Assembly (NCBI GenBank): GCA_004299485.1
Contig: SCQP01000007.1
Coordinates: forward strand, 142,623 to 206,622
Reading direction: 5' to 3'
Origin: Acidobacteriota bacterium
GTDB lineage: Bacteria > Acidobacteriota > Terriglobia > Terriglobales > SCQP01
Length of the DNA: 64,000 nucleotides
In this document: one piece after another, positions 3,129-55,779 of the stretch
How the letters are laid out: every line of letters starts with the position of its first letter
Position numbering within the stretch: the stretch's first letter is position 1
The notes under the pieces: model-generated
The model's input: only the letters and a program-made list of their open reading frames with translations
Told to the model about the DNA's origin: nothing
The model's database searches: none
Program-made: the position numbers and the translations under genes

Positions 3129-3228
3129 CGCGGGCATCCAGCGTGGCTTCGCCACGCGGCCCGCTCTCCAAGGCCGCAAAACCGCTGCGCCGGGGACCCC
3201 TACGCCCCGGCTCCGCTTCGGCCCGGCG
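3129..3228 (+). repeat. Dispersed structured repeat, subfamily III, copy G
   Basis: ~85% identical by hand alignment to the reverse complement of 25747-25848. Contains hairpins GCGTGGC-ttc-GCCACGC and GCCGGGG-N9-CCCCGGC. Lies in the divergent yihY/DUF47-pit intergenic region. Confidence 0.8.
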
Positions 3229-3254
3229 ACTTCACCCGCTATACTGAGTCAACC

Positions 3255-3866
3255 ATGCGATTCCTGCCGCGGGAAGCAAAGTTCTTCACTATGTTCGAGC
3301 AGATGGGCGCCATGCTCATCGAGGGCGCGGATTTGCTCAACAAGGCGCTCGCCGACATTGCCGAAGCACCTCTGCGGGCAGGGGAAATCAAGGCCCTCGA
3401 ACACAAGGCCGATACCCTGACTCACCAGATCATCACCAAACTCAATCAGACCTTCATCACTCCCTTCGATCGCGAAGACATCCACACCCTGAGCTCGCGG
3501 CTGGACGATGTCCTCGACCTGATCGATGCCACCACCATGCGCATCGTGATTTACAAGATCGCGGTCTTGCCGCCCGGCGCGCAGGAGCTCGGGAAGGTGC
3601 TCGCCGCCCAGGTGCGGGAAATCGCCGCGGCGCTGGCGCTGTTGCAGCGGCCCGATGGCATCCTGAAGCACTGCATCGAGATCAACCGCCTGGAGGACGA
3701 GGCCGACCGCATTTCCCGCGCCGGCATCGGCATGCTGTTCGAGAAAGCCTCGAACCCCATCTCGCTGATCAAGCAAAAAGAACTCTACGAAGTCCTGGAG
3801 CTGGCCACGGATAAATGCGAAGACGTCGCCAACGTGATCGAAACCATCGTGCTCAAGGCCGCCTAG
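3255..3866 (+). CDS. DUF47 / PhoU-like accessory protein of PiT phosphate transporters
   Basis: Internal ATG at 3255 of ORF 3069..3866. MRFLPREAKFFTMFEQM...HKADTLTHQIITKLNQTFITPFDREDIH...EDEADRI is typical of DUF47. Sits directly upstream of pit. The longer ORF start would run through repeat copy G. Confidence 0.85.
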   Translation: MRFLPREAKFFTMFEQMGAMLIEGADLLNKALADIAEAPLRAGEIKALEHKADTLTHQIITKLNQTFITPFDREDIHTLSSRLDDVLDLIDATTMRIVIYKIAVLPPGAQELGKVLAAQVREIAAALALLQRPDGILKHCIEINRLEDEADRISRAGIGMLFEKASNPISLIKQKELYEVLELATDKCEDVANVIETIVLKAA

Positions 3867-3882
3867 CGGTGCGAGCCGCCGC

Positions 3883-4878
3883 ATGAGCACCCTGCACGTC
3901 ATTATCATCATTGTCATCGCGGCGTTCTGCTTTGATTTTCTGAACGGCTTTCACGACGCCGCCAATTCCATCGCCACCGTCGTTTCCACGCGCGTGCTCA
4001 CGCCCGGCGTGGCCGTGGCCTGGTCGGCCGTCTTCAACTTCATCGCGGCGGTTTTTCTGGGCACGGGCGTAGCCGCCATGGTCGGTCACGGCATGGTGAA
4101 GTTATCGCTGGTGAACGAGCGCGTGGTGGTGGCCGGCCTTATTGGCGCCATCGTCTGGGATCTGCTGACCTGGTGGCTGGCGCTGCCCACCAGCAGCACC
4201 CATGCCCTGTTGGGCGGCTACGCCGGCGCCGCGATCGCCGCCGCGGGTTGGGGCGCGATCATCGCCCGCGGCTGGATCCTGACGCTGGCCTTCATCGTCA
4301 TCAGCCCCGCGACGGGGCTGGTCTTGGCATGGTTTTTCATGATCCTGGCCTCATGGGCCTTCCGGCGCTCACACCCGATGCGCGTGGACCGGCTGTTCCG
4401 CAAGCTGCAACTGGTGTCGGCGGCGCTGCTCAGCCTCGCCCACGGCACCAACGACGCCCAAAAAACCATGGGCATTGTTACCACCGCGCTGGTGACGGCG
4501 CATTTCATTCCCACCTTCAAGGTGCCCTTGTGGGTCATCCTGATGGCGGCAACGGCGATGGGCTTGGGAACGGCCTCCGGCGGCTGGCGCATTGTGCACA
4601 CCATGGGCTCGCGCATCACCAAGCTCAAGCCCGTGGGCGGTTCCTGCGCCGAGTTCGCCAGCGCGATCGCGCTGTTTGGCAGCACCGCTCTCGGCATTCC
4701 GGTCTCCACGACGCATACCGTCACGGGCGCCATCGTGGGCGTCGGCTCGGTCGAACGCTTGTCGGCCGTGCGCTGGGGCGTTGCCCGCAACATCGTCTGG
4801 GCCTGGATCCTGACCATCCCCGCCGCCGCCGTCGTGGCCGCCGGGTTCTGGTGGGCGCTGGGCCCGGTCCTGCACTAG
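3883..4878 (+). CDS. pit: Inorganic phosphate transporter, PiT family
   Basis: 331 aa with N-terminal FDFLNGFHDAANSIATVVSTR and second GTNDAQKTMGI signature. Polytopic membrane protein. Confidence 0.9.
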   Translation: MSTLHVIIIIVIAAFCFDFLNGFHDAANSIATVVSTRVLTPGVAVAWSAVFNFIAAVFLGTGVAAMVGHGMVKLSLVNERVVVAGLIGAIVWDLLTWWLALPTSSTHALLGGYAGAAIAAAGWGAIIARGWILTLAFIVISPATGLVLAWFFMILASWAFRRSHPMRVDRLFRKLQLVSAALLSLAHGTNDAQKTMGIVTTALVTAHFIPTFKVPLWVILMAATAMGLGTASGGWRIVHTMGSRITKLKPVGGSCAEFASAIALFGSTALGIPVSTTHTVTGAIVGVGSVERLSAVRWGVARNIVWAWILTIPAAAVVAAGFWWALGPVLH

Positions 4879-4904
4879 GAAGAAAGTATTACAATTAGGA
4901 AGAA

Positions 4905-5168
4905 ATGCCCGCCCTCAACATCAAAGACGCGGAGGTGCGCGCCCTCGCTCAGCAATTGGCCGAGGTCACCCATCAGACCATGACCGAGGCCGTCAAGACC
5001 GCCCTGCGCGAAAAGCTGGAGAGCGAACGCGCTCGTGACGAAAAGCACCGCCAGCGCATTCTGCGCCGGGTGCATGAACTGCAGCGCGAAATTGCCGCCT
5101 TGCCCGTCCTCGATACGCGCAGCGAAGACGAAATCCTCGGCTACGACGAAAACGGGCTGTTCAAGTGA
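4905..5168 (+). CDS. vapB: Type II antitoxin, VapB/FitA-like (Rv0623-like)
   Basis: 87 aa, MPALNIKDAEVRALAQQLAEVTHQTMTEAVKTALREKL. Its stop overlaps the GTG start of the downstream PIN gene (GTGA). Confidence 0.8.
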   Translation: MPALNIKDAEVRALAQQLAEVTHQTMTEAVKTALREKLESERARDEKHRQRILRRVHELQREIAALPVLDTRSEDEILGYDENGLFK

Positions 5169-5557: not shown

Positions 5558-5560
5558 ACC

Positions 5561-6592: not shown

Positions 6593-6645
6593 CTGCGTTC
6601 ATTGTAAGGGCACCGCTATACTGATGAGAGTTAACCGCTTGCGCC

Positions 6646-7386: not shown

Positions 7387-7450
7387 GCTAGCGCAAGCTG
7401 CGGTGGTGCTGAGCCGTAGCGTTTGCTACAGTTGAAGCCTTGGGCACCAC

Positions 7451-8623: not shown

Positions 8624-8647
8624 CTGCTGCACAAGGAACAAGACACT

Positions 8648-9648
<1,001 letters not shown>

Positions 9649-9652
<4 letters not shown>

Positions 9653-10698: not shown

Positions 10699-10707
10699 CT
10701 CTCGATT

Positions 10708-11364: not shown

Positions 11365-11370
11365 GGGAGA

Positions 11371-25734: not shown

Positions 25735-25746
25735 CCGCTGAATCTA

Positions 25747-25848
25747 CCACGAGCCGGGCAGCGGAGCCGGGGCACAGGGGCCCCCGGCGAAGCGGCCGTG
25801 CGGCCTTAGAGAGCGGGCCGCGCGGCAGCGCCGCGCTGGGTGCCCGCG
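25747..25848 (-). repeat. Dispersed structured repeat, subfamily III, copy F (inverted relative to G)
   Basis: The reverse complement aligns with 3129-3228 over ~100 nt. Hairpin GCGCGGC-gct-GCCGCGC is equivalent to G's GCGTGGC-ttc-GCCACGC. Shares GCCGGGG-N9-CCCCGGC. Confidence 0.75.
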
Positions 25849-25930
25849 ATTAAGAAATGCTCCCTGGCCTCTGGCCTCTGGACCCTGGCATATGTCATAG
25901 TGCAGGCTGAATTCCTGGGAGGTTGATAAT

Positions 25931-31053: not shown

Positions 31054-33618
31054 ATGGCCGACTGGATCGATCCTCTCGCCGCCGACCTGCGCCAAGCCTG
31101 GCGCGGTCTGCGCAAGCGGCGGGCCTTTGCGCTGACCATCATCGCCATCCTGGCGCTCGGCCTTGGCGGCAGTACGCTGGTGTTCGGCTGGGTCAACGCG
31201 ACGCTGCTGCATCCGCTGGCCAATATTCCCGGCGCGAGCCGGCTCACGGCGGTCGAGACCGTGATGCCCGATGGCTCGTATCACACCACCTCGTATCTCG
31301 ACTACCGCGATTACCGCGACCAGAACACCGCATTTACCGGCCTCGCCGCAGCGGCCCTGCTCCCCGCGGACGTGGCACGGCCCAGCGCGCGCCAGCCCGA
31401 GCGCGCCTGGGGCATGATCGTCAGCGAAAACTATTTCCAGGTGCTCGGGATTCACGCGACGCTAGGCCGTGTCTCCACGCCCGCCGACGCCCACGGCCCG
31501 GGCTCGGATCCGGAAATCATCCTGAGCTACCGCTATTGGCGGCAGCGCTTTGGCGGCTCGCCGGGCGTCGTCGGCACGGTGCTCGACGTCGACCACCAGC
31601 CCTTCACCATAATGGGCGTCACGCCGCGCGGCTTCGAAGGCACGACGGTAGGCGTCCAGCCGCAGTATTACGTCCCGCTGATGATGGAGCCGCTGCTGCT
31701 CCCGCTCGAAGATTTGCACTATCGCGCGCCGGGCTTTCTGCACATGATCGGCCGGCTGAAGCCGGGCGTTACGGCCGCCGCCGCCAACCTCGAGATGCGG
31801 CGCCTGGCGGTGAGCCTTGCGGCGCAGTATCCCGCGACGAATCGCAACGTCGGCATCGCGGTCAGCCCTATCGGCGAGGCGCACTACGGCTTGCAGCCGT
31901 CGCTCGGCCCGGTGCTGCTGTTTCTGCTGCTGGCGATGGCGCTGGTGCTGGTCATCGGCTGCGCCAACGTGGCCACGCTGCTGCTGACGCGGGCCGCCGC
32001 GCGCTGGCGCGAGCAGGCGGTGCGCGCCGCGCTGGGCGCCAGCCGCGGACGCCTGTTGCGGCAGTCCCTCGCCGAGCACGGGTTAATGGCACTGTTGGGC
32101 GGCGCCGCAGGCCTGCTGCTCGCCTACGCCACAGGCGGCTGGCTGGCGGCGCTGCTGCCCTCCGGTGGCGTCCCGCTCGGCCTCTCGACCGGCTTGAGCG
32201 GCCGCGCGGTTTTATTCCTCGGGCTTGCCACCGTAGCCGTCGCGGCCTGGATGGTCGCGGCGCCCGCGCTGGCCTCCGCGCCACAATTGCTAGACGCGCT
32301 CAAAAGCGGCGATCGCGGCGCCATCGCCGGCCGTGCGCACCACCGCCTGCGGACCGCCCTGGTGGTGCTCGAAGCGACGCTGGCTTTTACCGTCCTTGTG
32401 ACCGCTGGTCTGGTGGCGCGCAGCCTGCAGCGGGCCCAGCAGACCGATCCCGGCTTTGCCACCCGCAACCTGCTCATCGCCTCGCTCGACCTGCGCAGCG
32501 CCGGCAGCAGCGACGCGCAAGCGGCCAATTTCTACGCCCGCTTGAACGACCGCGTCCGCATGCTGCCGGGCGTTGCGGCCGCGAGCTTCGAGCGCTGGCT
32601 GCCGCTCAGCGGCTCCGGCAACGGCTCGACCCGGCCGGCGATTGCCGGCTACGCCCAGGCGCCCGGCGAAGACATTGATATCGCCTACAACGCCGTCGGG
32701 CCGCAGTACTTCTCGACGATGCGCATACCGCGGCTGGCCGGCCGCGGCTTCACCGCCGCCGACCGCGCCGGCGCGCCGCTCGTCTGCATCGTGAACGAAT
32801 CCATGGCACAGCGCTACTGGCCCGGCGCAAGCCCCATCGGCCACCGCCTCAACAGTTGGGACCGCTGGTGGACGGTGGTCGGCGTCGTCCGTGACAGCCG
32901 CTTCGCCAGCCTGCGCGAGCCGCCCCGTCCGTTTTTGTATTTTCCCTTTTTGCAGAACCCCACGAGCGACGCCACGCTGGTGGTGCGAGCCTCTAGTGGT
33001 GCTCCGCTGGCGGCAACTTGGAGGAGCCCGGAGCGCCAGCGGGCGGACCCTGCCAAGAATCGAAGCCCGCACTCCAAACGACCATCGGGAGCGACCAGGG
33101 CAAATAGTGGCGAGCCACTGGCCCTCGCGTCCTCCATCCGCAACGCCGCGCGCGCGCTCGATGCCGGGGCGACGGTGTATGCGCTGCACTCGGGCGGTGC
33201 GGTACTGGAGGCGTCCCTCTTTGCCGAGCGCACCGCGGCGCAGCTCGGCCTGCTGCTCGCCGTGCTGGCGCTGCTGCTGGCGGCGATTGGCCTCTACGGC
33301 GTGTTGTCCTTCTCGGTGGCGCAGCGCATGCGCGAAATGGGCCTGCGCCTGGCGCTCGGCGCACAACCACAGCAGGTTTATCGCTCGGTCGTCGGCCGCG
33401 GTCTGGCGACAGTGGCCATCGGCATCGTCCTTGGCGCCGCCCTCGCCGCCGTCCTCGCGCGCACGCTCTCCGGCCTGCTCTTCGGCGTGACCGCAGCCGA
33501 CCCGCTCACCTGGGCCTCGGCCGCCGCCATCCTGCTCGCTCTCGCCCTCGCCGCCAGTTTCGCCCCTGCCCGCCGCGCCACCCGCGCCGATCCCGCCGCC
33601 GTGCTGCGCTGCGAATAG
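31054..33618 (+). CDS. MacB-like duplicated ABC permease (ADOP family, two FtsX domains) carrying a 37-aa repeat-derived in-frame insert
   Basis: 854 aa. N-terminal DLRQAWRGLRKRRAFALTIIAILALGLGGST and two FtsX TM blocks. The ORF stays open through the insert at 33007-33122. Confidence 0.85.
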   Translation: MADWIDPLAADLRQAWRGLRKRRAFALTIIAILALGLGGSTLVFGWVNATLLHPLANIPGASRLTAVETVMPDGSYHTTSYLDYRDYRDQNTAFTGLAAAALLPADVARPSARQPERAWGMIVSENYFQVLGIHATLGRVSTPADAHGPGSDPEIILSYRYWRQRFGGSPGVVGTVLDVDHQPFTIMGVTPRGFEGTTVGVQPQYYVPLMMEPLLLPLEDLHYRAPGFLHMIGRLKPGVTAAAANLEMRRLAVSLAAQYPATNRNVGIAVSPIGEAHYGLQPSLGPVLLFLLLAMALVLVIGCANVATLLLTRAAARWREQAVRAALGASRGRLLRQSLAEHGLMALLGGAAGLLLAYATGGWLAALLPSGGVPLGLSTGLSGRAVLFLGLATVAVAAWMVAAPALASAPQLLDALKSGDRGAIAGRAHHRLRTALVVLEATLAFTVLVTAGLVARSLQRAQQTDPGFATRNLLIASLDLRSAGSSDAQAANFYARLNDRVRMLPGVAAASFERWLPLSGSGNGSTRPAIAGYAQAPGEDIDIAYNAVGPQYFSTMRIPRLAGRGFTAADRAGAPLVCIVNESMAQRYWPGASPIGHRLNSWDRWWTVVGVVRDSRFASLREPPRPFLYFPFLQNPTSDATLVVRASSGAPLAATWRSPERQRADPAKNRSPHSKRPSGATRANSGEPLALASSIRNAARALDAGATVYALHSGGAVLEASLFAERTAAQLGLLLAVLALLLAAIGLYGVLSFSVAQRMREMGLRLALGAQPQQVYRSVVGRGLATVAIGIVLGAALAAVLARTLSGLLFGVTAADPLTWASAAAILLALALAASFAPARRATRADPAAVLRCE
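33010..33118 (+). repeat. Dispersed structured repeat, subfamily II, copy A (inside the ADOP permease CDS)
   Basis: 109 nt, ~89% identical (about 12 mismatches, hand alignment) to copy B at 33676-33784. Flanked by direct CTGGC at 33007-33011 and 33118-33122. Confidence 0.8.
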
Positions 33619-33675
33619 TGCAGAACCAGCATCGCCGCACCCCAGCCGGGCGTGCCGGTTGCGGCCTTTCCATTG

Positions 33676-33784
33676 GCGGCAGCTTTGAGGAGCCCTGGGC
33701 GCCAGCGTGCGGACCCTGCCGGCAATCGAAGCCCGCACTCCGAGCGACCAACGGGAGCGACCAGGGCAAAAAGTGGCGAGCCAC
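33676..33784 (+). repeat. Dispersed structured repeat, subfamily II, copy B (intergenic)
   Basis: GCGGCAGCTTTGAGGAGCCCTGGGCGCCAGCGTGCGGACCCTGCC...GTGGCGAGCCAC. Lies between the ADOP stop and the next gene's start. Confidence 0.8.
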
Positions 33785-39678: not shown

Positions 39679-39756
39679 GCGCCTGTAGCTCAGAAGGAAC
39701 AGAGCAGCGGTTTCCTAAACCGCGTGTCGGGGGTTCGATTCCCTCCAGGCGCACCA
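39679..39756 (+). tRNA. tRNA-Arg (anticodon CCT), CCA encoded
   Basis: Hand-folded cloverleaf: acceptor GCGCCTG/CAGGCGC, D-arm GCTC-AGAAGGAACA-GAGC, anticodon stem GCGGT/ACCGC with loop TTCCTAA, variable GTGTC, T-arm GGGGG-TTCGATT-CCCTC, discriminator A, CCA. Confidence 0.9.
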
Positions 39757-42929: not shown

Positions 42930-44648
42930 ATGCAAAAATTTTGTCTTCCCGGGGTGCTGCTGGCCGCTGCCCTGGCCATGGCGTGCGCAGGCGCAGCGCC
43001 AGCGCCCGCCGCGGCGGTGGCCAGTGCGCCGCAACGGCCCAAGCCAACGCCCGCGCCAGGACCGCCGCCACCAGTCCTGGACACATATGGGGGCCTGAGC
43101 AGCGTCACGGCAGGCACAGCTACGGGCTTTTTCCGCGTGCAGAAAGTGGGCGAGCGCTGGGTCTTCGTAGATCCGCTCGGCCACCCCTTCTGGATGCTGG
43201 GCGTGTTCGCTGTGGATACGAACACCGACACCGCCGCCGGAACCATCTACACCATCGGCAAGTACGGCAGCCGCGCCACCTGGGGCGAGCAGGCGGTGCG
43301 CCGGCTGCGCACCTGGGGTTTCAACTCGACCGCGGAATATTCCTCGGCGTATGTGGTTCCGGTAAACAATGACGGCAGTTACGAAACCACGGATCCGATG
43401 CCCTGGGTCGCCATCATGCGGCCCTCCTACTACAGCCTGCGCGACAGCGGTGGCTATGCGCCGCAGCCGGTCAAGGATCTGGTCGCCGGTCTCGATAGCG
43501 TGTATAGAAACTATCGCGGCGATACGCTGCCCGATGTTTTTGACCCCGATTTTGCGATGTATGCCAACGCTTCGCTGGCCGCGCAGACCAGTGCCGCAGA
43601 AGCGGCCTCGAGCTGGCTGATCGGCACGGCGGTGGACGATCTCGATGACCTCTGGGGCTTCGGCCCCAGCCCGGACTTGCCGGCCGCGCGCACCTCCTCA
43701 AACATCGGCTGGATCGCGCTTTGCACCAATTTCCAGCAGACCGCCAACGCGCAACTGGGCGAGATCTATACCGATCCGGAGGTCTACACCAAATACGCGC
43801 TGGCCAACTGGCTGCAGGCCAAATATGGCAGCATTGCGGCGCTCGATGCCGCCTGGGGCGCCAACTACACCAGCTTCGGCGACGCCGGCGGCTTCGGTAC
43901 CGGAACTGGCCTGCTCGATGAGGACGGGCGCGACCCCTGGGTGGGAGCGGACGACGTGGCGTTGCGCGGCGCGAGCGCGGCCGTGCGCGCCGACCTGAAT
44001 GCCTTTCTCGCGGTGTACGCACAGAAGTATTTTTCAATTGTGAGCGCGGCGCTGCGCAAGTACCGGCCCAATCAGTTGATCTTCGGCCCCTGCACGCTGA
44101 ATAGCTGGAACGGCATCAGCCGTGCGGCGATTCTGGCGGCGGCGGGGCAGTACACCGATGTAATTCAGGCCAGCATGGCGACCCAGCAGGTGTTTGACCT
44201 GAGCCTGCAGGAGGCAGGCGACCGCCCCTTCGTGACCTGGACGGGCATGCCGGCGAACCCCGATTCGGACCTGTCGGCCTATCCCAATCCCAACGAGCCG
44301 GATGTGTACAGCACCCAGGCCGCGCGCGCCACGGCCTATACGGCCGCGATTAAAGCCGATTTCGCCTACACCGGCTCAACCGCGGCGGGCAATCTGGCTG
44401 GCAGCCAGAATGTCGCCGGCAGCAAATTCTGGGCGTGGACGGATTCCTGGGGCGAGCGCACGAATTGGGGCCTGGTGACATTTCTGGATAATCCTTACGA
44501 TGGCGTGGCGGATGGAATTGCGGCGGGTACCGACGCCTGGGGCTACGCGACTGGCGGCGAAGCCGCGAATTACGGCAACTTCATCGGACCAGCGCAGCAG
44601 GCCAACGCTGCCGTGATCGCCTCATTCGCGGCCGCGCTCGGGCACTGA
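42930..44648 (+). CDS. Putative glycoside-hydrolase-like lipoprotein (TIM-barrel, GH5/GH42-like)
   Basis: Start at ATG 42930 (MQKFCLPGVLLAAALAMAC lipobox). P-rich linker, FWMLGV...RLRTWGFNSTAEYSS. Family assignment is tentative. Confidence 0.55.
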   Translation: MQKFCLPGVLLAAALAMACAGAAPAPAAAVASAPQRPKPTPAPGPPPPVLDTYGGLSSVTAGTATGFFRVQKVGERWVFVDPLGHPFWMLGVFAVDTNTDTAAGTIYTIGKYGSRATWGEQAVRRLRTWGFNSTAEYSSAYVVPVNNDGSYETTDPMPWVAIMRPSYYSLRDSGGYAPQPVKDLVAGLDSVYRNYRGDTLPDVFDPDFAMYANASLAAQTSAAEAASSWLIGTAVDDLDDLWGFGPSPDLPAARTSSNIGWIALCTNFQQTANAQLGEIYTDPEVYTKYALANWLQAKYGSIAALDAAWGANYTSFGDAGGFGTGTGLLDEDGRDPWVGADDVALRGASAAVRADLNAFLAVYAQKYFSIVSAALRKYRPNQLIFGPCTLNSWNGISRAAILAAAGQYTDVIQASMATQQVFDLSLQEAGDRPFVTWTGMPANPDSDLSAYPNPNEPDVYSTQAARATAYTAAIKADFAYTGSTAAGNLAGSQNVAGSKFWAWTDSWGERTNWGLVTFLDNPYDGVADGIAAGTDAWGYATGGEAANYGNFIGPAQQANAAVIASFAAALGH

Positions 44649-45260
44649 CGCCTGGAGCACGCGCAGCATCAGTTCATGGCGGCTGGGCACACGGTAGCGG
44701 TGCAGCAGATGGGAGACGTGGAATTTGACCGTGCGTTCGGAAATCCCCAGGCCGGCCGCGATCTCCTTATTGCTGCGGCGCGACAGGATGCCGTCGAGCA
44801 CCTGCCGTTCGCGCGCGCTCAGGCCGGCCATCGCCGGCGCGAGCCGCGCGCCGGGAAGCTGAGTCAGCAACTCGTCGATGAACCCGGCGAGCAACAAGCG
44901 CGGCGCCCAGTAGGCGCCGGCGGCGACGGCGCGCAAAGCCCGCGCCAGATCGCGGCCGAGCACGTCATAGCTGACGAGGCCGCGCACCCCTTCCCGTAAC
45001 AAGGTGAACGCCCGATTCCGGTCGAAGGCCTCGGCGACGGCCACAACCCGAGGCTGCACGGGGAGCCGTACCAGCACGCGCTCCAGCAACTCAGGGTTAT
45101 GGGCATCAATCGCCCATGCAGCCGAGGGCAGCAGCTTCAGCCGCTCGACCTGGCCGGCATCCGGCAACAGGAACGCATGCACCACAAACTCCCGCTGCGG
45201 GAGCTGCAGGCGCATGCGTTCCAGCATGACGGGATGGGCGGCAACGAGGGAAACTTCCAT
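44622..45260 (-). CDS. LuxR/FixJ-type HTH regulator with an atypical receiver-like N-domain
   Basis: Start at internal ATG 45260 (MEVSLVAAHPVML...). C-terminal LSARERQVLDGILSRRSNKEIAAGLGISERTVKFHVSHLL. The track ORF's extra 80 codons are repeat copy C read antisense. Confidence 0.8.
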   Translation of the reverse strand: MEVSLVAAHPVMLERMRLQLPQREFVVHAFLLPDAGQVERLKLLPSAAWAIDAHNPELLERVLVRLPVQPRVVAVAEAFDRNRAFTLLREGVRGLVSYDVLGRDLARALRAVAAGAYWAPRLLLAGFIDELLTQLPGARLAPAMAGLSARERQVLDGILSRRSNKEIAAGLGISERTVKFHVSHLLHRYRVPSRHELMLRVLQASVPERGRE

Positions 45261-45348
45261 GCGGCGAACGGACAATCCGCTGCACGCCGCGTTCCAAAGC
45301 GGAAGGACGGCGGAATAGTGCAAAAGCTTGCAGCAAAACGACACTGCT

Positions 45349-45500
45349 CGCGGCAACTTGGAGACGCCATGAGCACCTGCGGGCGTCCGTTGCCGGGGAG
45401 TGAAGCCCAGCCACAGCCCGACCAGCGCCGGGGCCCCCAAGCCGCACGCGGCTTGGGGTGGCAGCGGGAGGGCGGCTCCAGCAAGAGGTGGCTGTGCCAC
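45349..45500 (+). repeat. Dispersed structured repeat, subfamily I, copy C (152 nt)
   Basis: 150/152 identical to 46986-47137. Hairpins GGCAAC..GACGCC-N13-GGCGTC.GTTGCC, CCCCAAGCCGC-ac-GCGGCTTGGGG and terminal GTGGC-tgt-GCCAC. Confidence 0.9.
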
Positions 45501-45505
45501 ACGCC

Positions 45506-46825
45506 TCAGGCGGCACGGAGATGTGAGCTGAGGTGGTCGGTAAACCAGGTGGCGGCGAGGCGGGCGACTTCGTCGAGGGCGCCGGATTCTTCGAACAGGT
45601 GCGAGGCGCTGGGAACGATGACCAGCTTCTTGACGGGCGCGGCGCAGCGGGCAAGCGCGTCCTGATTGAGAGCGATGCCCTCGGTGTCGCGGCCGCCGAC
45701 GATGAACAGCGTAGCAGCACGGACCGAGCCCAGCGCCGGACCGGCCAGATCGGGGCGTCCGCCGCGCGAGACGATGGTGGTGACGCGGGGCTCACCGGCG
45801 GCCGCCATCAGCGCGGCCGCGGCACCGGTGCTGGCGCCGAAGTAGCCAAAGTCGAGCTGCTCGAGTTCGGCCTGCTGCGCCGCCCATCGTGTGGCGTGGC
45901 GGAGCCTACCGGCGAGCAGCGGTATATCAAAGCGGAAGCCCGCGGTCGCATGGTCGAGCACTTCTTCTTCGGGCGAGAGCAGGTCAAACAATAGCGTGCC
46001 CAGCCCGGCTCCGTGCAGCCGCTCCGCCACGCGGCGGTTGCGCGGACTGTGGCGGCTGCTGCCGCTGCCGTGCGCGAACAGCACCAGGCCCCGTGCGCCC
46101 GCGGGCAGCCCCAGCGTGCCCTCCAGATCGACGCCTCCAGTGCGAATCGTGACTGCCCGCGCCCGCGCCGCATTTTGCGCGTAAGCGGCATCGGCTTCGG
46201 CCAGCGCCTGCACCACCGCCTCATCGGTAATCTGGCGGAAATCCTGATAGACCTGCCCAACCGCATAGTAATCGTATGGCGCCGAAAGGCAAACCATGTC
46301 ATCGGCAGCAAAGCGCGCCGCGTCGCAGGCGTCGGGTGGCGCGACCGGCACCGCGATCACAAGCTGCCGCGGGTTGCGCGGCCGCAACACGCGAATGGCG
46401 GCGCGCATGTCGGCCCCCGTGGCGATACCGTCATCCACCACAATCACGGGCTTGCCGGCAATGTCGCGCGCTGGACGGCCCTGCCGGTACAACTGCTCGC
46501 GCCGTTTCACTTCCGCACGTGCCATCTCGATGACTCGCTGCACGGCAGCATCGGAGAGACCGAGCTTCTGCATGATTTCGCTGTCGAGCACAGGTGAGCC
46601 TGCGGCCGCAATGGCTCCAAAGGCCAGCTCCTCATGGCCGGGCACACCCAGTTTGCGCAGAATCACCACGTCGAGCGGCCAACCCAGCACCTTCGCTACC
46701 TCGCCGGCCACAATCACGCCACCACGCGGAATGGCAAACACCACGCCTTCCGGCCCCTGGGCAAAACGGGCCAACCGGCGCGCAAGCTGCTGGCCGGCAT
46801 CCTGGCGATCGCGGAACACAGACAC
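45506..46825 (-). CDS. Phosphoribosyltransferase domain fused to a dienelactone-hydrolase/alpha-beta-hydrolase domain
   Basis: 439 aa. FRDRQDAGQQLA...VIVVDDGIATGADM PRT motif, then LFAHGSGSSRHSPRN...GASTGAAAAL...SHLFEE hydrolase triad context. Confidence 0.8.
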   Translation of the reverse strand: MSVFRDRQDAGQQLARRLARFAQGPEGVVFAIPRGGVIVAGEVAKVLGWPLDVVILRKLGVPGHEELAFGAIAAAGSPVLDSEIMQKLGLSDAAVQRVIEMARAEVKRREQLYRQGRPARDIAGKPVIVVDDGIATGADMRAAIRVLRPRNPRQLVIAVPVAPPDACDAARFAADDMVCLSAPYDYYAVGQVYQDFRQITDEAVVQALAEADAAYAQNAARARAVTIRTGGVDLEGTLGLPAGARGLVLFAHGSGSSRHSPRNRRVAERLHGAGLGTLLFDLLSPEEEVLDHATAGFRFDIPLLAGRLRHATRWAAQQAELEQLDFGYFGASTGAAAALMAAAGEPRVTTIVSRGGRPDLAGPALGSVRAATLFIVGGRDTEGIALNQDALARCAAPVKKLVIVPSASHLFEESGALDEVARLAATWFTDHLSSHLRAA

Positions 46826-46885: not shown

Positions 46886-47263
46886 TTACTTGGCGCCGGG
46901 CGGAGTGCGGAAGGCCACGTTGACCCAGTTCCAGGTGTTGATGGCAACGATGGCCATGGTGAGCGCGATGAGTTCCTGCTCGTTACGCGGCAACTTGGAG
47001 ACGCCATGAGCACCTGCGGGCGTCCGTTGCCGGGGAGTGAAGCCCAGCCACAGCCCGACCAGCGCCGGGGCCCCCAAGCCGCAGGCGGCTTGGGGTGGCA
47101 GTGGGAGGGCGGCTCCAGCAAGAGGTGGCTGTGCCACGAACTCGCGCCGGGCCTCTTCGTACACGGCCTCGGGAACGTGGTCGACGGCGACCAGCGTCAG
47201 CGCCTCGGTCCAGGTGAGAGCGGCGTGCTCGCGCGGCGGGCATCGGGTGAAGCAGCGCGGTAA
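46886..47263 (-). pseudogene. Relic of a carboxymuconolactone decarboxylase (AhpD-like) family gene: C-terminal half only, interrupted by repeat copy D
   Basis: Minus strand reads ...REHAALTWTEALTLVAVDHVPEAVYEEARREF-[51 aa from the repeat]-NEQELIALTMAIVAINTWNWVNVAFRTPPGAK*. In-frame TGA at 47266-47264. The CxxC-containing N-terminal half is absent. Confidence 0.65.
46986..47137 (+). repeat. Dispersed structured repeat, subfamily I, copy D (152 nt, inside the CMD relic)
   Basis: Differs from copy C only at two positions (GCACGC vs GCAGGC hairpin apex; GGCAGCGGG vs GGCAGTGGG). Confidence 0.9.
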
Positions 47264-47541: not shown

Positions 47542-50500
47542 CTATTTTATCGCCGGCAAACCGGCGGCGCGGAGCAGCGGGTTGAGCTTCGCCAGATCGG
47601 CGGCGCGGGTCGATTTCCAGGCGGCAAGCTGTGGCTCCAGTAGGTTGTGCTCCTGCTGATAGACGGCCACATCCTGGCTGGTGGGCGCTGCGTCGGCGGA
47701 GTCAACGCTGGTGGTCAGCGCGCCGAGCGTGCCATTGATCAGCGCCATGCCGCCGCCGGCCGCGCCCGAACCGAAGAGGTCGGAGGCGCCGCCGGCCACC
47801 TTCGTTGCGGCCGCGGCGAGCTGGCGGGCAGCGGCGAGCGCGACAGCGTGGCCGGCGAGTCTCGACTCCAGGGCATGAAGATGCGCGGCCAGACGTCCGG
47901 CGTCCTGATAGACGGCCATGCTCGCGGCGAGATCGGCGCGAATCTTCATTTCCAGATCCATCTGCGCCTCCAGCTCCGCGCGCGGCACATGCACGCGCGG
48001 GTCCTGTCTAACGTCGAGCGGCGCGGAGTAGCTGCGGCCATCGACGGTCAGGCTCACTTCGTACTGGCCGGGCAGGACCATGGGGCCTTGCGGCAGCCGG
48101 AACGACGCGCCCGGACTAGCGGCGATGGAGTAGTTGGTGTCGCGGCCAAGCGCTTCCGGCGGCGGATAGCGCAGGTCCCACACCCAGCGGTGCATGCCCG
48201 CTGTCGCGGGCAGTGCGCGCGGCGGCGTCTCCCAGTAGGCGGCGGCCTGCGGCGGCGTTGCCGGCGGCTTGGGCGTGGCTTCGGTGCTCGAGTACTCGCG
48301 GATGAGCTGCCCGGAAGACGTGCGGAGGCTCAGCGTGACGCGGCCGGAAGCCGCGGCGGGCAGGTAGTAATCAAGGATGGCGCCGGCGGGAGGGTTCTCG
48401 CCCGTGGGCGTCGAGCGCGGTAGCGGCGTGTCGGCGTTCACGTCGGCGCGTACGCGGATGGCAGTTGCAGGCTGAAAGAGCGTAACCGCACTGGTAGATG
48501 CGCGGCCCGAGGCGATCTGTTCGAGCGGCGTAATGTCGTCCAGCACCCAGAAGGCGCGGCCGTGCGTGGCCACAACCAGATCGTTGTCGCGGATGGCGAG
48601 ATCGCGGACGGACGCGTCCGGCAGATTGAGCTGCAGCGGCTGCCAATCCCTGCCGTTGTTGAACGAGACGTAGACGCCGCGCTCGGTACCGGCAAACAGC
48701 AGCCCTGGGTGTTGCGGGTCTTCGCGCACGGCATGCACGTAGGCGCGCGGCGCAATGCCGGCGTCAATCTGCGTCCAGCTTTGGCCGAAATCGGTGGTGC
48801 GGTAAATGTGCGGCCGGAAGTCGTTGATGCGATGGCTGTCGACCGCGGCCCAGGCGGTGCCGGGCAGGCTGTGCGAAGCCTCGATCAGGCTGATCTTGCT
48901 CCAGACAGGCAGGCCCCTGGGCGTCACGTTGGACCAGTGCGCGCCGGCGTCCTGCGTCAGCCAGATGAGGCCGTCGTCGGTGCCCGCCCAGATCTCGCCG
49001 TTCTTCACCGGCGAGGGCGCGATGGTATAGATGACGCCGCGGTTTTCGCCCTTCACGAAACGCTCGGCTTCGGCGGGATCGGTGGGCTTAGGCTCGGCAT
49101 TTTGGTAGAGCGTCAAGTCAGGGCTGATACGCTTCCAGCTCTTGCCCGCGCTGCCTTGGTCATCGACGGTGGTTTCGAGCAGATACTGCGTTCCCGCGTA
49201 GAGCGTGTGCGGGTTAGTGGCGGAGAAGAGGATGGGGAAGGTCCAGGTAGTGCGGTAAGTGCCGTTGCCGGGCCAGGGCGTGATGTTTTCCACCTGGCCG
49301 GTGACGCTGTCGAAGCGCGTGATCACCCCGCCATAGCTGCCGGCAAAGATGATTTTGGGATCGAGCGGATCGGGGGCGACATAACCGCTTTCGCCGCCGC
49401 CGATGGGATGCCAGTCGCGGAAGCTGATGCGGCCCCAATTGCTGCGGCTGACGATGCCTGCGGTGCCGGAATCCTGCTGCGCGCCGTAGATCCAGTAGGG
49501 CCACTGGTTATCGGTAATGACGTGATAGAACTGGCCGATGGGCTGGTTGAACCAGCTCGACCACGCCTGGCCACCGTTAAGGGTAATGACGGCGCCCTGA
49601 TCCACGCCGAGGATCATGTGGTGCGTGTTGCTGGGGTCGATCCAGAGGGTGTGGTAGTCGTCGCCGCCGGGCGCGCCTTTGAGGGCGGTGAAGCTTTCCC
49701 CGCCATTGTCGGAGTGGTAAAAAGCCACGTCGCAGATGTAGACCTCATCGCGGCTGGCGGGCGAAGCGTAAACGCCGGAAAAATACCAGGAGCGGCTGTC
49801 GATGCGCGCATCGGCGCTGACACGCTTCCAGGTGGCGCCGCTGTCGTCGGAGCGGTACAAACCGCCTTGCTTGGCGCTGATCAGTGCGTACACGCGCCGG
49901 CCGCCATCGTGATAGGCAACCGCAAGACCCACGCGGCCCCATTGACCGGCGGGCAAGCCGTGCCCGGAGATTTCAGTCCAGGTGGCGCCCTCGTCGCTGG
50001 ATTTGTAAATCCCGCTGCCGGGACCTTGCGTCGGCGGGTATTGATTCCAGGCCGGGCGGTACGCGGCCCAGAGCGACGCGTAGATGACCTGCGGGTTGTC
50101 AGGATCCATCGCCAGGTCGATGCCGCCGACGGTGGGGTTTTTATACAGCACCTTGCGCCAGGTGGCGCCGCCATCGGTCGAGCGATAAATGCCGCGCTCG
50201 GGATTGGGCGCGTAGGCCCGGCCAAGGGCCGCGACCAGCACGATGTCGGGATTGTGCGGATCGACGTCGATGGCGCCGATGTGCCGCGTCTCCAGTAGCC
50301 CGATATGCCGCCAGGTACGGCCGCCATCCATCGATTTATACACGCCGTTGCCGTAGGAGGTGTCGGAGCGCATGTCGGCTTCGCCCGTGCCGGCATAAAT
50401 AATGTTGGGGTTCGAAGGCGCGATGGCAATGGCGCCAATGGAGGCGATGTTCTGCTGGTCGAAGATGGAGTGCCAGGTGCGCCCGGCATTGTCGGTGCGC

Positions 50501-50697
50501 CACACGCCCCCACCCACGCCGCCCATGTAATAGGTGCTGGTGCCGGGTACGCCGGCGACGGCCAGCACCCGGCCCGAACGGAACGGCCCCACCAGCCGCC
50601 AGCGCATGGCGGAAAACAGGCTGGGGCTGACCTGCGCCGCCAACGGCAGCGCGAGCAAGAGAACGAGAGCGGGCGTGAACCGGCGCAAGTAACTCAT
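47542..50697 (-). CDS. Secreted BNR/sortilin(VPS10)-like multi-beta-propeller protein
   Basis: 1051 aa. Signal peptide and many S-x-D-x-G-x-T-W BNR repeats (TDNAGRTW, SMDGGRTW, STDGGATW, SSDEGATW, SDDSGATW, SDNGGESF, TQDAGAHW, TTDFGQSW, FNNGRDW). Confidence 0.85.
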   Translation of the reverse strand: MSYLRRFTPALVLLLALPLAAQVSPSLFSAMRWRLVGPFRSGRVLAVAGVPGTSTYYMGGVGGGVWRTDNAGRTWHSIFDQQNIASIGAIAIAPSNPNIIYAGTGEADMRSDTSYGNGVYKSMDGGRTWRHIGLLETRHIGAIDVDPHNPDIVLVAALGRAYAPNPERGIYRSTDGGATWRKVLYKNPTVGGIDLAMDPDNPQVIYASLWAAYRPAWNQYPPTQGPGSGIYKSSDEGATWTEISGHGLPAGQWGRVGLAVAYHDGGRRVYALISAKQGGLYRSDDSGATWKRVSADARIDSRSWYFSGVYASPASRDEVYICDVAFYHSDNGGESFTALKGAPGGDDYHTLWIDPSNTHHMILGVDQGAVITLNGGQAWSSWFNQPIGQFYHVITDNQWPYWIYGAQQDSGTAGIVSRSNWGRISFRDWHPIGGGESGYVAPDPLDPKIIFAGSYGGVITRFDSVTGQVENITPWPGNGTYRTTWTFPILFSATNPHTLYAGTQYLLETTVDDQGSAGKSWKRISPDLTLYQNAEPKPTDPAEAERFVKGENRGVIYTIAPSPVKNGEIWAGTDDGLIWLTQDAGAHWSNVTPRGLPVWSKISLIEASHSLPGTAWAAVDSHRINDFRPHIYRTTDFGQSWTQIDAGIAPRAYVHAVREDPQHPGLLFAGTERGVYVSFNNGRDWQPLQLNLPDASVRDLAIRDNDLVVATHGRAFWVLDDITPLEQIASGRASTSAVTLFQPATAIRVRADVNADTPLPRSTPTGENPPAGAILDYYLPAAASGRVTLSLRTSSGQLIREYSSTEATPKPPATPPQAAAYWETPPRALPATAGMHRWVWDLRYPPPEALGRDTNYSIAASPGASFRLPQGPMVLPGQYEVSLTVDGRSYSAPLDVRQDPRVHVPRAELEAQMDLEMKIRADLAASMAVYQDAGRLAAHLHALESRLAGHAVALAAARQLAAAATKVAGGASDLFGSGAAGGGMALINGTLGALTTSVDSADAAPTSQDVAVYQQEHNLLEPQLAAWKSTRAADLAKLNPLLRAAGLPAIK

Positions 50698-50818
50698 GGT
50701 GTGAGCATACCAGATACACGGCGTCTCATGACGGCGCGATCAATCGTGCGTTTGTGGCCTACGGCGCTGGTAGTAGGGCCGGTTTGCCTGCACCTTAGGA
50801 GGTGATCCTGGAACCAGA

Positions 50819-53869: not shown

Positions 53870-55167
53870 CGCACCGCTGCCGGTTGCGGCGCCGCAACCG
53901 CCGCTACTGCGGTCTCCAGCCGCGGCATGAGCTGCTCCAGATCGGCCATGGAGGCGACGCCGATCGAAATCCGGAACCAGCCTTCCCCTTCGGCGGCGCC
54001 GAAGGCGGCAAACGGGACCATGCCGACGTGGGCGGCCTGCAGCAGGTAGCGGCGGATGTCGTCATCGGTCTGCAGCCGTTGACCTTGGGGCGTGCGCAGC
54101 CCATGCAGGGCGAAGCGGACGCTGGCGTAAATCGCGCCCTGCGGCTTGAGACTATCGACCGGAAGCCCTTTGGCGCGCAACGCCTGCATGCCCTTGTGAA
54201 CGACCTCGAGGCGGGCGGCGGCTTCGCGGCGCATGCCGGCAATGTAGGCGTCCACCGCGGCCGCGTCGTTCAGGAATTTGGCGGTCGCGATCTGTTCCGG
54301 ACGCGGCGCCCAGGCACCGACGTGGCCGTTGATTTTGTTGATCGCCTTGGCGATGGCAGGCGGCGCAATCGCCCAGCCCACACGCAGGCCGGTGGCAGCG
54401 AAGCATTTCGAGATGGCGTCAATGGTGACCAGATAGGGAGCGATGGCGGGGCGCAGCAGCACCGGATCGGAATGCACCGTACCCGGCGTTGTGAGCATCC
54501 AGTAGACCTGGTCGTAAAGCATGTACAGCGGCCGCTCGCCGGCCGGGCGGCGGGTGTTTTCTTCCAGCACCGCGTCGCAGATGGCAGCGAGCTCTTCGGC
54601 GGAAAGCGATGAACCGGCGGGGTTGAGCGGCGAGTTCAGCGCCAGCAGGCGCGCGCCGCGCAAATGCGGCTGGAGGGCCTTGGCGGTGGGCAGAAAGCCG
54701 GCTTCTTTGGGACAGGCGACGCGAATTTGCTCCGCCCCCACCATGTCGCAGTAGTATTCGTTGTTCCAGCCCGGTACGCCAAAGACGACGCGGTCGCCGG
54801 CTTCGACCAGCGCCGCGTAGGCCGCGTAAATGACCGGACGCGCACCTGCCGCAATCACAACGTTGTCGAGCGTCACCTCGCGGCCGCCGCGTGGCTTGTA
54901 CAGGCCGCAAATGGCGCGCCGCAGAACTTCCATGCCTATGGGCGGCGGGTAGTTCGCCTCACCCGCCCGCAACGCCTCGACGATGTTGTCTTCGAGGCCG
55001 CGCGGAATGCGAAACTGCGCCGGATGGAAATCACCCACCGTAAGGTTCAGAATCGGCTCGCCCTGGGCCATGAGCTCACGGATTTCGGCCGCGATGCCCA
55101 GAATGGCGGAGCCTTTTAAACGTTCGGCAAGAGACGTCAGTTGGGAACCCGGTTGGCTGGCCTGCAT
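53866..55167 (-). CDS. Class I/II pyridoxal-phosphate aminotransferase (aspartate aminotransferase-like)
   Basis: 433 aa. NLTVGDF...NSPLNPAGS...DAISKCFAATGLRVGW (PLP lysine context). 4-nt convergent overlap with the TonB receptor gene. Confidence 0.85.
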   Translation of the reverse strand: MQASQPGSQLTSLAERLKGSAILGIAAEIRELMAQGEPILNLTVGDFHPAQFRIPRGLEDNIVEALRAGEANYPPPIGMEVLRRAICGLYKPRGGREVTLDNVVIAAGARPVIYAAYAALVEAGDRVVFGVPGWNNEYYCDMVGAEQIRVACPKEAGFLPTAKALQPHLRGARLLALNSPLNPAGSSLSAEELAAICDAVLEENTRRPAGERPLYMLYDQVYWMLTTPGTVHSDPVLLRPAIAPYLVTIDAISKCFAATGLRVGWAIAPPAIAKAINKINGHVGAWAPRPEQIATAKFLNDAAAVDAYIAGMRREAAARLEVVHKGMQALRAKGLPVDSLKPQGAIYASVRFALHGLRTPQGQRLQTDDDIRRYLLQAAHVGMVPFAAFGAAEGEGWFRISIGVASMADLEQLMPRLETAVAAVAAPQPAAVR

Positions 55168-55172
55168 GTCCC

Positions 55173-55649
55173 TTAGTATGGCAAAGGATCGGTCACCGCG
55201 TGGCGCCAGAAAGCGAAGGTCGTCGGGTCGATGGTGGCGGGATAAAGGCGATAGAGTCCCTGCAGGTGAGCCAACAAATCTTGCGCCTCTGTTTCCAGGC
55301 CGGCGAGCCGCAGGCTCCGCAAAATGCGGGTCAAACGTAGGAAATTATGGTCGCCGGCGCAAAGCCAGGGCATCGGCCCGGGAGGGTTAACGCCATAGAA
55401 GGCGAGCATGGCGGCGAGCGCCTGGCGCATGCGGTCTTGCAGCTCGGGCGAGCGGCGGAACTCGGCGGCGTCTTCCGGGGTCAGCAAAGGCGCGGAGGGT
55501 TGAAAGGCGCTCGGCTCGGGCAGCGGAAACAGCCACTGGATGTAATCGTGGGTGTGCTCGAGACGGGCCGCATCCCAGGCGATAATTTCGCTCAGCCGGC
55601 GGCCGCGATGGTCGGGACCACCGCGATAGAAATCCAGAATGCGGGACAT
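55173..55649 (-). CDS. Opioid-growth-factor-receptor (OGFr) N-terminal-domain-like protein
   Basis: 158 aa. ILDFYRGGPDHRGRRLSEIIAWDAARLEHTHDYIQWLFPLPEPS matches the conserved OGFr_N core as I recall it. Confidence 0.65.
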   Translation of the reverse strand: MSRILDFYRGGPDHRGRRLSEIIAWDAARLEHTHDYIQWLFPLPEPSAFQPSAPLLTPEDAAEFRRSPELQDRMRQALAAMLAFYGVNPPGPMPWLCAGDHNFLRLTRILRSLRLAGLETEAQDLLAHLQGLYRLYPATIDPTTFAFWRHAVTDPLPY

Positions 55650-55681
55650 GGCGCTTCAGGGTTAGGATAGCCAAATACGCC

Positions 55682-55779
55682 CTGGGCACCAGCGGGTGTC
55701 CGTTGCCGGGAGCGAAACCCAGCCACAGCCCGGCCAGCGCCGGGGCCCCCAAGCCGCACGCCGTCTACCGGCGGCTCGT
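55682..55779 (+). repeat. Dispersed structured repeat, subfamily I-like, copy E (5'- and 3'-truncated, diverged)
   Basis: CTGGGCACCAGCGGGTGTCCGTTGCCGGGAGCGAAACCCAGCCACAGCCCGGCCAGCGCCGGGGCCCCCAAGCCGCACGC aligns with the core of C/D. Its 5' CCCTGGGC resembles copy B, and its 3' CGGCTCGTG is shared with copy F. Confidence 0.7.

Follow-up and report, generated by a model that had tools for sequence, protein, structure and literature searches.

What are the GC-rich structured repeats that recur along a 64,000-nucleotide stretch of an Acidobacteriota genome (Terriglobales; contig SCQP01000007.1, positions 142,623 to 206,622; hereafter the window; G+C = 66%), and what moved them there? A sequence-only reading of this DNA had described seven homologous segments, labeled A to G, and had likened them to repetitive extragenic palindromes (REPs) or to insertion sequence (IS)-derived elements mobilized in trans, with a family of small structured RNAs as the alternative. 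Here we show that segments A to E belong to one family of dispersed repeats (family 1), which is probably non-autonomous REP-like mobile DNA, moved as single-stranded DNA by a class 3 TnpA_Y1 enzyme, related to the REP-associated tyrosine transposases (RAYT-like), that is encoded elsewhere. Segments G and F form a second family (family 2).

Two families of repeats

The seven segments were compared over the window by repeat finding and by nhmmer searches with single sequences and with profiles. All of them are present where they had been placed, or within a few bases. C and D are the closest pair (152 nt at 99% identity by repeat finding; nhmmer E = 1e-38 to 1e-39), followed by A and B (116 nt, 88%; E = 1e-22). 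E matches C/D over 54 nt at 94% and 34 nt at 88% (E = 1e-13), and G and F match each other in inverted orientation (98 nt, 84%; E = 1e-12 to 1e-15). The relationship between A/B and C/D is significant yet weak (E from 6.5e-5 to 0.02), and it is confirmed by many copies in other genomes that are intermediate between the two types. No nhmmer match links G/F to A-E in the window, either with single sequences (E ≤ 10) or with profiles in both directions (E ≤ 20), and we treat G/F as a separate family because the two profiles never find each other.

As judged by sequence comparison, the window contains five copies of family 1, in subfamilies A/B and C/D/E, and two copies of family 2. The proposal of seven homologous copies in three subfamilies consequently holds for A-E, as one family with two subfamilies, and fails for G/F; a single seven-copy family is ruled out. 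What G/F share with C/D/E appears limited to the hairpin style and the 14-nt motif GCGCCGGGGNCCCC, of which the window has one match in each of G, C, D and E where 0.03 would be expected in all. Homology of family 2 to family 1 is not demonstrable at this level. The shared motif GCGCCGGGG(N)CCCC that had been pointed out is real, with four matches (G, C, D and E) against 0.03 expected. The degenerate box proposed as a common signature of all copies is not significant alone (4 matches against 1.33 expected, a count equaled in 3 of 100 shuffles). The GTGGC..GCCAC palindrome, also noted earlier, is indeed the 3'-terminal hairpin of family 1, whereas the enrichment of solitary GYGGC-N3-GCCRC hairpins in the window is not significant (9 matches versus 4.8 expected).

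Three other origins were considered and rejected. A and B are not coding-level paralogues, given that they lie in different frames and B is intergenic. Nor are they the template and variable repeats of a diversity-generating retroelement, since inspection of the sequences showed that their differences are not adenine-specific and the family exceeds 100 copies. Integron attC sites were dismissed on inspection, in the absence of RYYYAAC/GTTRRRY cores.

Boundaries and anatomy of family 1

Anchored sequence logos place both ends of the element precisely. Conservation starts at positions -2/-1 as (W)(C/G)GCGGCAACTTGGAG, continues through the near-invariant GAGCGCCAGCGGGCG..GTTGCCGG, in which the box GAGCGCCAGCGGGCG is more than 90% invariant, and ends exactly at the final base of a terminal hairpin, G(Y)GGC-N3-GCC(R)C. 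In the 5' flank, 91% of copies have a C at position -6 (position 33004 for copy A), that is, the element inserts four bases downstream of a C. The next three positions, -5 to -3, are random (entropy of about 2 bits) and share no mutual information with positions inside the element. No pairing of this variable flank with the other end was found. Furthermore, the flanks of family-1 copies showed neither direct nor inverted matches at any offset and no complementarity, i.e., no target-site duplication (TSD), and the junction of copy A leaves at most a 2-nt TG ambiguity. Terminal inverted repeats (TIRs) are also absent: the ends read GCGGCAAC... and ...GCC(R)C, with complementarity that is only subterminal and internal. 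The earlier observation that the window has neither TIRs at the copies nor a transposase holds.

Complete copies occur in discrete sizes of 112, 115, 118, 139, 150-159, 173-178, 192 and 231-235 nt, depending on the internal hairpin modules that they contain. Truncated copies that retain only the 5' part and nested copies also occur. All five copies of the window lie on the plus strand. Copy A (33008..33118, with boundaries taken from the family consensus) and copy B (33674..33784) are of the A type. Copy C (45348..45500), copy D (46985..47137) and copy E (55674..55766) are of the C type. The last is truncated at both ends and lacks the GCGGCAACTTGGAG 5' arm and everything past the first arm of the module hairpin.

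Copy C displays the full set of substructures, all on the plus strand. The 5' hairpin HP1 (45351..45395) pairs CGGCAAC/GTTGCCG, GG/CC and ACGCC-/GGGCGT around the conserved loop box GAGCRCCWGCG. The optional module hairpin (45435..45458), a palindrome that reads CCCCAAGCCGC-AC-GCGGCTTGGGG, was delimited by comparison with 118-nt copies that do not have it. The 3'-terminal hairpin HP3, GTGGC-TGT-GCCAC (45488..45500), is the point where conservation stops, at its last base. Copy D carries the same module at 47072-47095 and the same HP3 at 47125-47137, and the A/B version of HP3 is GTGGC-GA-GCCAC. In both C and D the module is inserted in the loop of a REP-like core (see below), with AGC on either side.

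Pairing of these helices is well maintained. In HP1, 90.7% of cells are paired over 48 distinct copies, and HP1 and HP3 together reach 90%, compared to 32-51% in partner-slid controls. HP3 occurs mainly as GCGGC/GCCGC (about 40 copies) or GTGGC/GCCAC (24 copies), with the mixed stems GTGGC/GCCGC in four copies and GCGGC/GCCAC in one.

We also observed that one family-1 copy elsewhere (locus L051, 6525-6708) carries a tandem array of a 39-nt hairpin module, CCCGTCCCACCCCAGCATGCGCCGCTGCATGCTGGGGAC, bounded by CGTC. These bounds recall the REPs with CGTC tags described by Di Nocera et al. 2013, whose stems are shorter.

Distribution of family 1

A pattern made of the 25 positions common to A-D, GCGGCARCTTKGAGNNGCCNNGNGCNCCNGCG, was scanned against one genome per species in 185,579 species. 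It matched 75 stretches, all from 10 metagenome-assembled genomes (MAGs) of Terriglobales/Acidobacteria (table counts: 45 in JBOGKW, 11 in JBOGKQ, 6 in JAKAOE, 5 in DAIDIF, 3 in JBOGKK, and five singletons), and the scan of viral contigs gave no family-1 matches. The 75 loci amount to 532 kb, and together with the window about 600 kb were examined. Searches with hidden Markov models (HMMs) recovered 116 to 121 family-1 copies in the 532 kb of loci, far above the pattern count, and a 53-nt HMM of the 5' module recovered 126 copies in the window and loci combined. The number of copies per subfamily varies from genome to genome. Overall, family 1 is present at tens or more copies per genome and is specific to Terriglobales (Acidobacteria).

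Insertions in genes and genomic context

The host gene of copy A (31054..33618, plus strand) encodes a duplicated MacB_PCD/FtsX permease of the ADOP type according to its Pfam matches, and its open reading frame (ORF) is identical to the NCBI entry 'MAG: FtsX-like permease family protein [Acidobacteria bacterium]'. Copy A is a 111-nt in-frame insertion that adds 37 residues to this permease, and the codon signal drops across 32930-33110. Seven permease homologues (46-66% identical, 813-814 aa) all lack exactly the copy A segment. Deleting 33008-33118 (111 nt) restores AGT GGT GCT CCG CTG GCC CTC, which encodes SGAPLAL where the homologues have GDPLAL. Since the native permease frame is restored when copy A is removed, the C at position -6 is target DNA. 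Copies C and D provide a different view of the same process, as they are 99% identical yet have unrelated flanks.

Two in-frame copies were observed in other MAGs. In JBOGKW, a 138-nt copy (locus L064, 6629-6766) lies in sense orientation within the gene of valyl-tRNA synthetase (ValRS), contributes 46 residues and splits the anticodon-binding Anticodon_1 domain into two matched stretches. In JBOGKK, a 115-nt A-type copy (locus L007, 4679-4793) lies in antisense orientation, also in frame, within a nitrite/sulfite reductase gene, and the NIR_SIR match of this reductase spans 198 residues for a profile of 158 positions.

Such positions are the minority. With genes called by a codon-usage model trained on the loci, copies between co-directional genes were almost evenly divided into sense (21) and antisense (25), 17 sites were convergent and 8 divergent. 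Eight copies were called inside genes and about half of these calls are credible, i.e., some 3-4 among roughly 100 copies. The earlier statement that copies of the window lie inside two ORFs is correct for A only; at B, D and E the overlapping ORFs are weakly called or spuriously extended. Copy B is intergenic: the stop codon of the permease gene lies 56 nt before it, and 70 nt after it comes the ATG at 33854, the true start of the downstream gene (Tat-like MKRREFISGL). An element end that faces the 3' end of a gene is often 0-15 nt from the stop codon, and in several family-1 copies the stop codon itself occupies positions -5 to -3. The elements are mostly tolerated directly past a stop codon and, on occasion, in frame inside a gene.

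The native target of copy A, AGTGGTGCTCCGCTGGC (32995-33011), matches the element 3' end plus flank, AGTGGCGAGCCACTGGC (33106-33122), at 13 of 17 positions. In another locus (L075), a degenerate second copy starts 2 nt past the terminal hairpin of the first. Family 1 may have a preference for landing beside such hairpins. A BLAST search for empty sites, made with the flanks among the loci, returned only other repeat copies.

Strand bias

Family-1 copies are strongly co-oriented. Among adjacent pairs on one contig, 38 of 42 lie on the same strand (p = 6e-8), and in 25 of 29 loci with several copies all of these have one orientation. Co-orientation persists with distance, with 24 versus 3 pairs at separations of at least 1 kb and 13 versus 2 at 2 kb or more. 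Furthermore, orientation is associated with local GC skew computed with the elements masked: loci with '+' copies have a mean skew of -0.037 and loci with '-' copies one of +0.020 (Fisher p = 0.0017). Regression indicates that the effect of skew (p = 0.002) is independent of gene-strand bias. One-strand insertion at the replication fork is documented for IS200/IS605 elements (summarized in PMC6006769). The strand bias of family 1 would be the signature expected of such insertion, with the link to replication predicted from the skew.

Relation to class 3 TnpA_Y1 repeats

Planctomycetes, Acidobacteria and Proteobacteria are the main carriers of class 3 tnpA_Y1 genes, and these genes are flanked by atypical hairpins with a CnGA foot that reach about 600 copies in Solibacter usitatus (Quentin et al. 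2018, BMC Genomics 19:475, PMC6006769). Published units, listed in Table S1 of that study, include CAGAGCCGCGACCGTTAGGGAGCGTCCCG and CCGAGCCGCGACCGTAAGGGAGCGGA. A distinct Acidobacteria group of RAYT-like genes has also been described, and the repeats that flank these genes can form repeat families (Di Nocera et al. 2013, PMC3733652). We derived the pattern CGACC-N{3,4}-GGGAGCG from Table S1 of Quentin et al. 2018, and not from the window. It has two matches in the window against 0.05 expected, one in copy A (CGACC-N3-GGGAGCG at 33079..33093, plus strand) and the other at the equivalent position of copy B (33745-33759, plus strand), and 42 matches in 32 loci. At least one match (locus L053, 6020-6034) lies outside any detected family-1 copy. 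The A-type core reads CCGA-GCGACC-AAC-GGGAGCG-ACC, the JBOGKW-type core CAGCCGCAGCGACC-AGC-GGGAGCGTCCAG, and the C/D-type core CGACC-NNN-GGGAGGGCG, whose loop comes with or without the module. A CnGA foot is present as CCGA in copy B and in A-type copies elsewhere; window copy A reads CCAAACGACC.

To our knowledge, class 3 HuH Y1 enzymes have never been studied experimentally. They have been proposed as an evolutionary link between the IS200/IS605 transposases and the domesticated RAYTs.

No gene for such an enzyme was found beside the copies examined. In the window and loci no gene recurs beside them, the largest clusters of neighboring genes having five members and those examined being ordinary genes. 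Inspection of the genes between oppositely oriented copies revealed no autonomous partner. None of the printed 5'-only copies runs into a recognizable transposase ORF, as judged by reading the sequences with no domain search.

Weighing the explanations

The REP-like reading finds support in the copy number, the sharp ends without TIRs or TSDs, the insertion polymorphism, the absence of an orientation bias toward transcription, the strand bias that follows GC skew, and the core motif. The suggestion that the copies are REP/BIME-like (BIMEs being bacterial interspersed mosaic elements) or resemble palindrome-associated transposable elements (PATEs), and are mobilized by a Y1 enzyme, is thereby supported and agrees with all that could be put to a test. 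In the scheme that we favor, the mobile unit comprises the 5' hairpin module (W)(C/G)GCGGCAACTTGGAG..GAGCGCCAGCGGGCG..GTTGCCGG, a core of CGACC, loop and GGGAG(G)CG, zero to several nested modules, and the terminal hairpin G(Y)GGC-N3-GCC(R)C. A class 3 TnpA_Y1 from elsewhere in the genome would recognize the hairpins and their 5' foot, and the single-stranded element would be cut-and-pasted or copied at the replication fork. Insertion, as shown above, takes place without target duplication, four bases 3' of a C, and strand-specifically, along the replication-type asymmetry.

A number of observations weigh against this scheme. Neither a tblastn search with an IS200 TnpA probe nor a regular expression for the class 3 HuH/Y motif found a Y1 gene in the window and the 75 loci (about 600 kb), and the check for RAYT or IS200/IS605 genes called for by the sequence-only reading came back negative on this same DNA. 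Because no such gene was found there, we can only infer which enzyme acts, and the link to it depends on a motif match of 12 bases and on published work. Only A-type copies have a clear CnGA foot; other types have TCGA, or the corresponding bases lie further off, and the other CnGA candidate in these types is inside the HP1 loop (logo positions 19-22). Nothing in the published class 3 units, of 26-29 nt, corresponds to the conserved 5' module. The strand with the foot lies on the C-rich strand, which is not the polarity reported for IS608, and the relation of skew to fork is assumed for these organisms. Finally, covariation is sparse, so that selection on the hairpin structure is weakly documented, a sparseness that we attribute to the young age of the family-1 copies.

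Could the copies instead be structured-RNA genes or cis-elements (small RNAs, leaders, terminators or stabilizers) in which an RNA fold is selected? Their hairpins are well formed, with the 90% of paired cells given above, a stop codon is no more than 15 nt away from many copies, much as for E. coli REPs in 3' untranslated regions, and G, F and B are just upstream of genes in sense orientation. Two pairs covary, one in HP1 (A-U to G-C, 7 copies) and one in HP3 (C-G to U-A, 10 distinct rows), and four of the mixed terminal stems, against one, are compatible with G-U pairing on the written strand. No other pair shows double changes, however, RNAalifold yields only a weak consensus (-12.6 kcal/mol; covariation term, -0.8), and the z-scores of minimum free energy for single copies are unremarkable (+0.3 to -2.0). 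No Rfam family matches the copies, including Acido-1 and Acido-Lenti-1, the latter reaching 12.2 bits over 14 nt against a threshold of 37. Only a tRNA-Arg passes the gathering threshold in the window, no hit to the copies at E ≤ 10 counted as a match (the best sub-threshold E was at least 0.69), and the IS605-orfB, omega-RNA and HEARO models do not match the copies either. The anchored logo shows no conserved promoter upstream of the 5' end. This absence and the random orientation to transcription (21 versus 25, with copies in coding sequences in both orientations) argue against a strand-specific RNA function; orientation tracks the replication-type strand asymmetry instead. We regard RNA function as the least probable of the accounts considered here, and a riboswitch or leader RNA in particular was rejected on the absent Rfam matches, the fold statistics and the orientation. 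Nearly as improbable are immobile repeats that the host would maintain as structural DNA or as sites bound, for example, by nucleoid proteins or gyrase, or as polar replication signals, and that recombination would have spread. Polar chromosomal motifs typically have a strand bias along GC skew as well, and the more than 90% invariance of the box GAGCGCCAGCGGGCG also speaks for this account. Against it stand the in-frame insertions in conserved genes, missing from homologues, the unrelated flanks of the 99% identical copies C and D, the truncated and nested copies, and the subfamilies whose copy number differs between genomes.

If family 1 is mobile and non-autonomous, another enzyme could be responsible, for example an IS110/IS1111 DEDD recombinase, an IS91/Helitron-like rolling-circle HUH enzyme, an IS607 serine recombinase, or a retroelement. 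IS91/ISCR, IS110 and IS607 elements also lack TIRs and TSDs, have a 3'-terminal hairpin and use a loose target. Copy A and the L075 tandem pair landed 2 nt past a hairpin resembling an element end, as hairpin-targeting IS do, and no Y1 gene was found nearby. Against this alternative, the core motif matches published repeats of class 3 Y1 enzymes, no transposase gene of any type recurs beside the copies, and the printed truncated copies carry no transposase ORF recognizable in the sequence reading described above. We consider it unlikely, less so than the two preceding alternatives. A more specific form of the class 3 reading, which we advance tentatively and would sooner doubt than adopt, is that family 1 is a currently active composite 'REPIN-like' unit of class 3 HuH Y1 enzymes that has its own rules and adds translated peptides to essential proteins. 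These rules would be a single direct unit whose 5' hairpin differs from its 3' hairpin, a target as small as C-N3, insertion specific to one replication strand, and hairpin modules that nest.

Comparison with known systems

The known elements that family 1 resembles most are the REP-like repeats that flank class 3 TnpA_Y1 genes. These occur in the same phylum (Solibacter usitatus), at a high copy number of about 600, with weak or atypical hairpins and a CnGA foot, and their core, GCCGC-GA-CC-loop-GG-GA-GCGG, shares CGACC-N3/4-GGGAGCG with family 1. The copy number of family 1 is high, with five copies in the 64-kb window and 45 strict-pattern stretches in one MAG. However, published class 3 units are 25-30 nt long, whereas in family 1 that unit is embedded in a composite of 111-235 nt, which also includes a strongly conserved 5' hairpin module of 47 nt, a terminal hairpin of its own and, as an option, nested modules. 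The loop also differs, with 3 nt in family 1 and 4 in the published units (the C/D-type core reads GGGAGGGCG).

Family 1 resembles REP, BIME and REPIN-RAYT systems in that all are short GC-rich extragenic palindromes at high copy number, mostly past gene ends, without TIRs or TSDs. In those systems a single-copy Y1 enzyme is presumed to mobilize the repeats in trans, and in-frame intragenic units are known. In contrast, the logos of both ends and the core of family 1 show no GT[AG]G foot of the canonical REP, its unit is much longer than a REP, and it consists of single directly oriented units (38 of 42 adjacent copies are co-oriented) where REPINs and BIMEs are head-to-head pairs. With the PATEs of the IS200/IS605 group, family 1 shares subterminal or terminal hairpins at both ends, the lack of TIRs and TSDs, and single-strand-specific insertion just 3' of a short target. 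In PATEs the orientation is tied to replication, and that of family 1 follows contig strand and GC skew. The target of family 1 is only C-N3 and not a fixed tetra- or pentanucleotide, and its right end is the foot of a hairpin. We found no IS200/IS605 element with family-1 ends in the window and loci, and we know of none.

Rickettsia palindromic elements (RPEs) are palindromic repeats of 100-150 nt that lie in frame in genes, some of them essential, and are translated. Family 1 is likewise found in frame in an ADOP permease, ValRS and a NIR_SIR reductase; the resemblance is functional only, with sequences unrelated to RPEs. Unlike RPEs, family 1 resides in free-living GC-rich soil bacteria and only a minority of its copies are intragenic. 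Miniature inverted-repeat transposable elements such as Correia/NEMIS, ERIC and Nezha are also small, non-autonomous, structured and dispersed, often near genes, but they are defined by the TIRs and TSDs that were tested for in family 1 and are absent.

The kind of element is already known, namely the REP-like repeats of HuH Y1 enzymes, of the little-studied class 3 type reported in Acidobacteria. The earlier remark that the repeat is not recognized as a named element holds only in part, since its core motif had been published in 2018. New in family 1 are its composite build, its precise ends with a C-N3 target, the nesting of its modules, a strand bias of the replication type, and its in-frame insertions into genes of a permease, a ValRS and a reductase.

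Family 2 and other features of the window

Copy C lies between genes 44622-45323 (LuxR/GerE) and 45506-46825 and is antisense to both, as each is on the minus strand. Copy D lies upstream of the second of these and downstream of a sortilin/BNR gene (47542-50697, minus strand). C and D are thus 99% identical direct repeats that bracket one gene, a 439-aa ORF (45506-46825) with an N-terminal phosphoribosyltransferase (PRTase) domain.

Family 2 consists of an AT-rich TAAT motif followed by a hairpin, GCGGG..CCAGCG(Y)GGC-N3-GCC(R)CGC..CCCGC. Copy G (3116..3233, plus strand; main hairpin 3130-3165) fills a divergent intergenic region directly upstream of a PhoU_div (3255-3866)/PiT (3883-4878) operon, and copy F (25746..25861, minus strand; main hairpin 25812-25847) is directly upstream of a histidine kinase gene (24508-25734, minus strand); both are sense to the downstream genes. 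An HMM of the hairpin found about eight further copies in the Terriglobales loci, most with an AT-rich TAAT-like motif in front. The stems covary, as in CCAGCGTGGC/GCCACGCGG, CCAGCGCGGC/GCCGCGCGG, GGTCGTGGC/GCCACGAC and CGCCTGGC/GCCAGGCG. A metagenome scan with the 20-base pattern GCGGCCCGCTCTNNAAGGCCGC yielded nine stretches, all chance matches in unrelated sequence. Family 2 is a second dispersed hairpin repeat, of the same style and with a lower copy number.

Both window copies of family 2 end 12-40 nt before a start codon (3116-3254 and 25735-25930). They have TACTAAT or TTCTTAAT in front and TATACT or TAGATT behind, which resemble -10 elements. Family 2 may supply or displace promoters of the phosphate-transport operon and of the sensor kinase gene. 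In one locus (L019, 7574-7700) a hairpin of the family-2 type is followed by tandem copies of GGGTTGCCCGCCCCGCT(A/G)(C/T)GGGTGCGCAGGGCGG, another GC-rich repeat.

Other features of the window include the tRNA-Arg(CCT) gene at 39679-39756, its sole Rfam or ARAGORN match. A 15-nt tandem array with at least 12 register-shifted copies (20814-21068) lies within the minus-strand ORF 20781-23015, whose 745-aa product carries at its C-terminus a run of about 13 AY(R/H)(A/E)P pentapeptides encoded by this array. The convergent ORFs 33854-36229 (plus) and 36226-38739 (minus), of 790-840 aa, have a strong coding signal and are mutually dissimilar. Neither has a Pfam match at E ≤ 0.001; the first starts with the Tat-like MKRREFISGLAAAGAW and the second with MQRREFLKGAA.

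Implications

In soil, Terriglobales rank among the most abundant bacteria, and most of what is known of their genomes comes from MAGs. Assemblies break at a repeat that is present in tens or more copies per genome. Such a repeat also disturbs annotation, both through spurious ORFs, as over B, D and E, and through the segments of 37-46 residues added to the ADOP permease, ValRS and sulfite/nitrite reductase, and annotators and structure predictors should be aware of these insertions. At the level of the chromosome, the C/D direct repeats are a ready substrate for deletion or duplication of the PRTase-domain gene between them.

Family 1 also provides a sequence-defined and abundant candidate substrate for class 3 HuH Y1 enzymes, and its strand bias would be a simple way to read from genomes how single-strand transposition is coupled to replication in systems other than the IS200/IS605 models. 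Should it be an active class 3 unit, it would be the first defined substrate from which to learn how class 3 enzymes operate.

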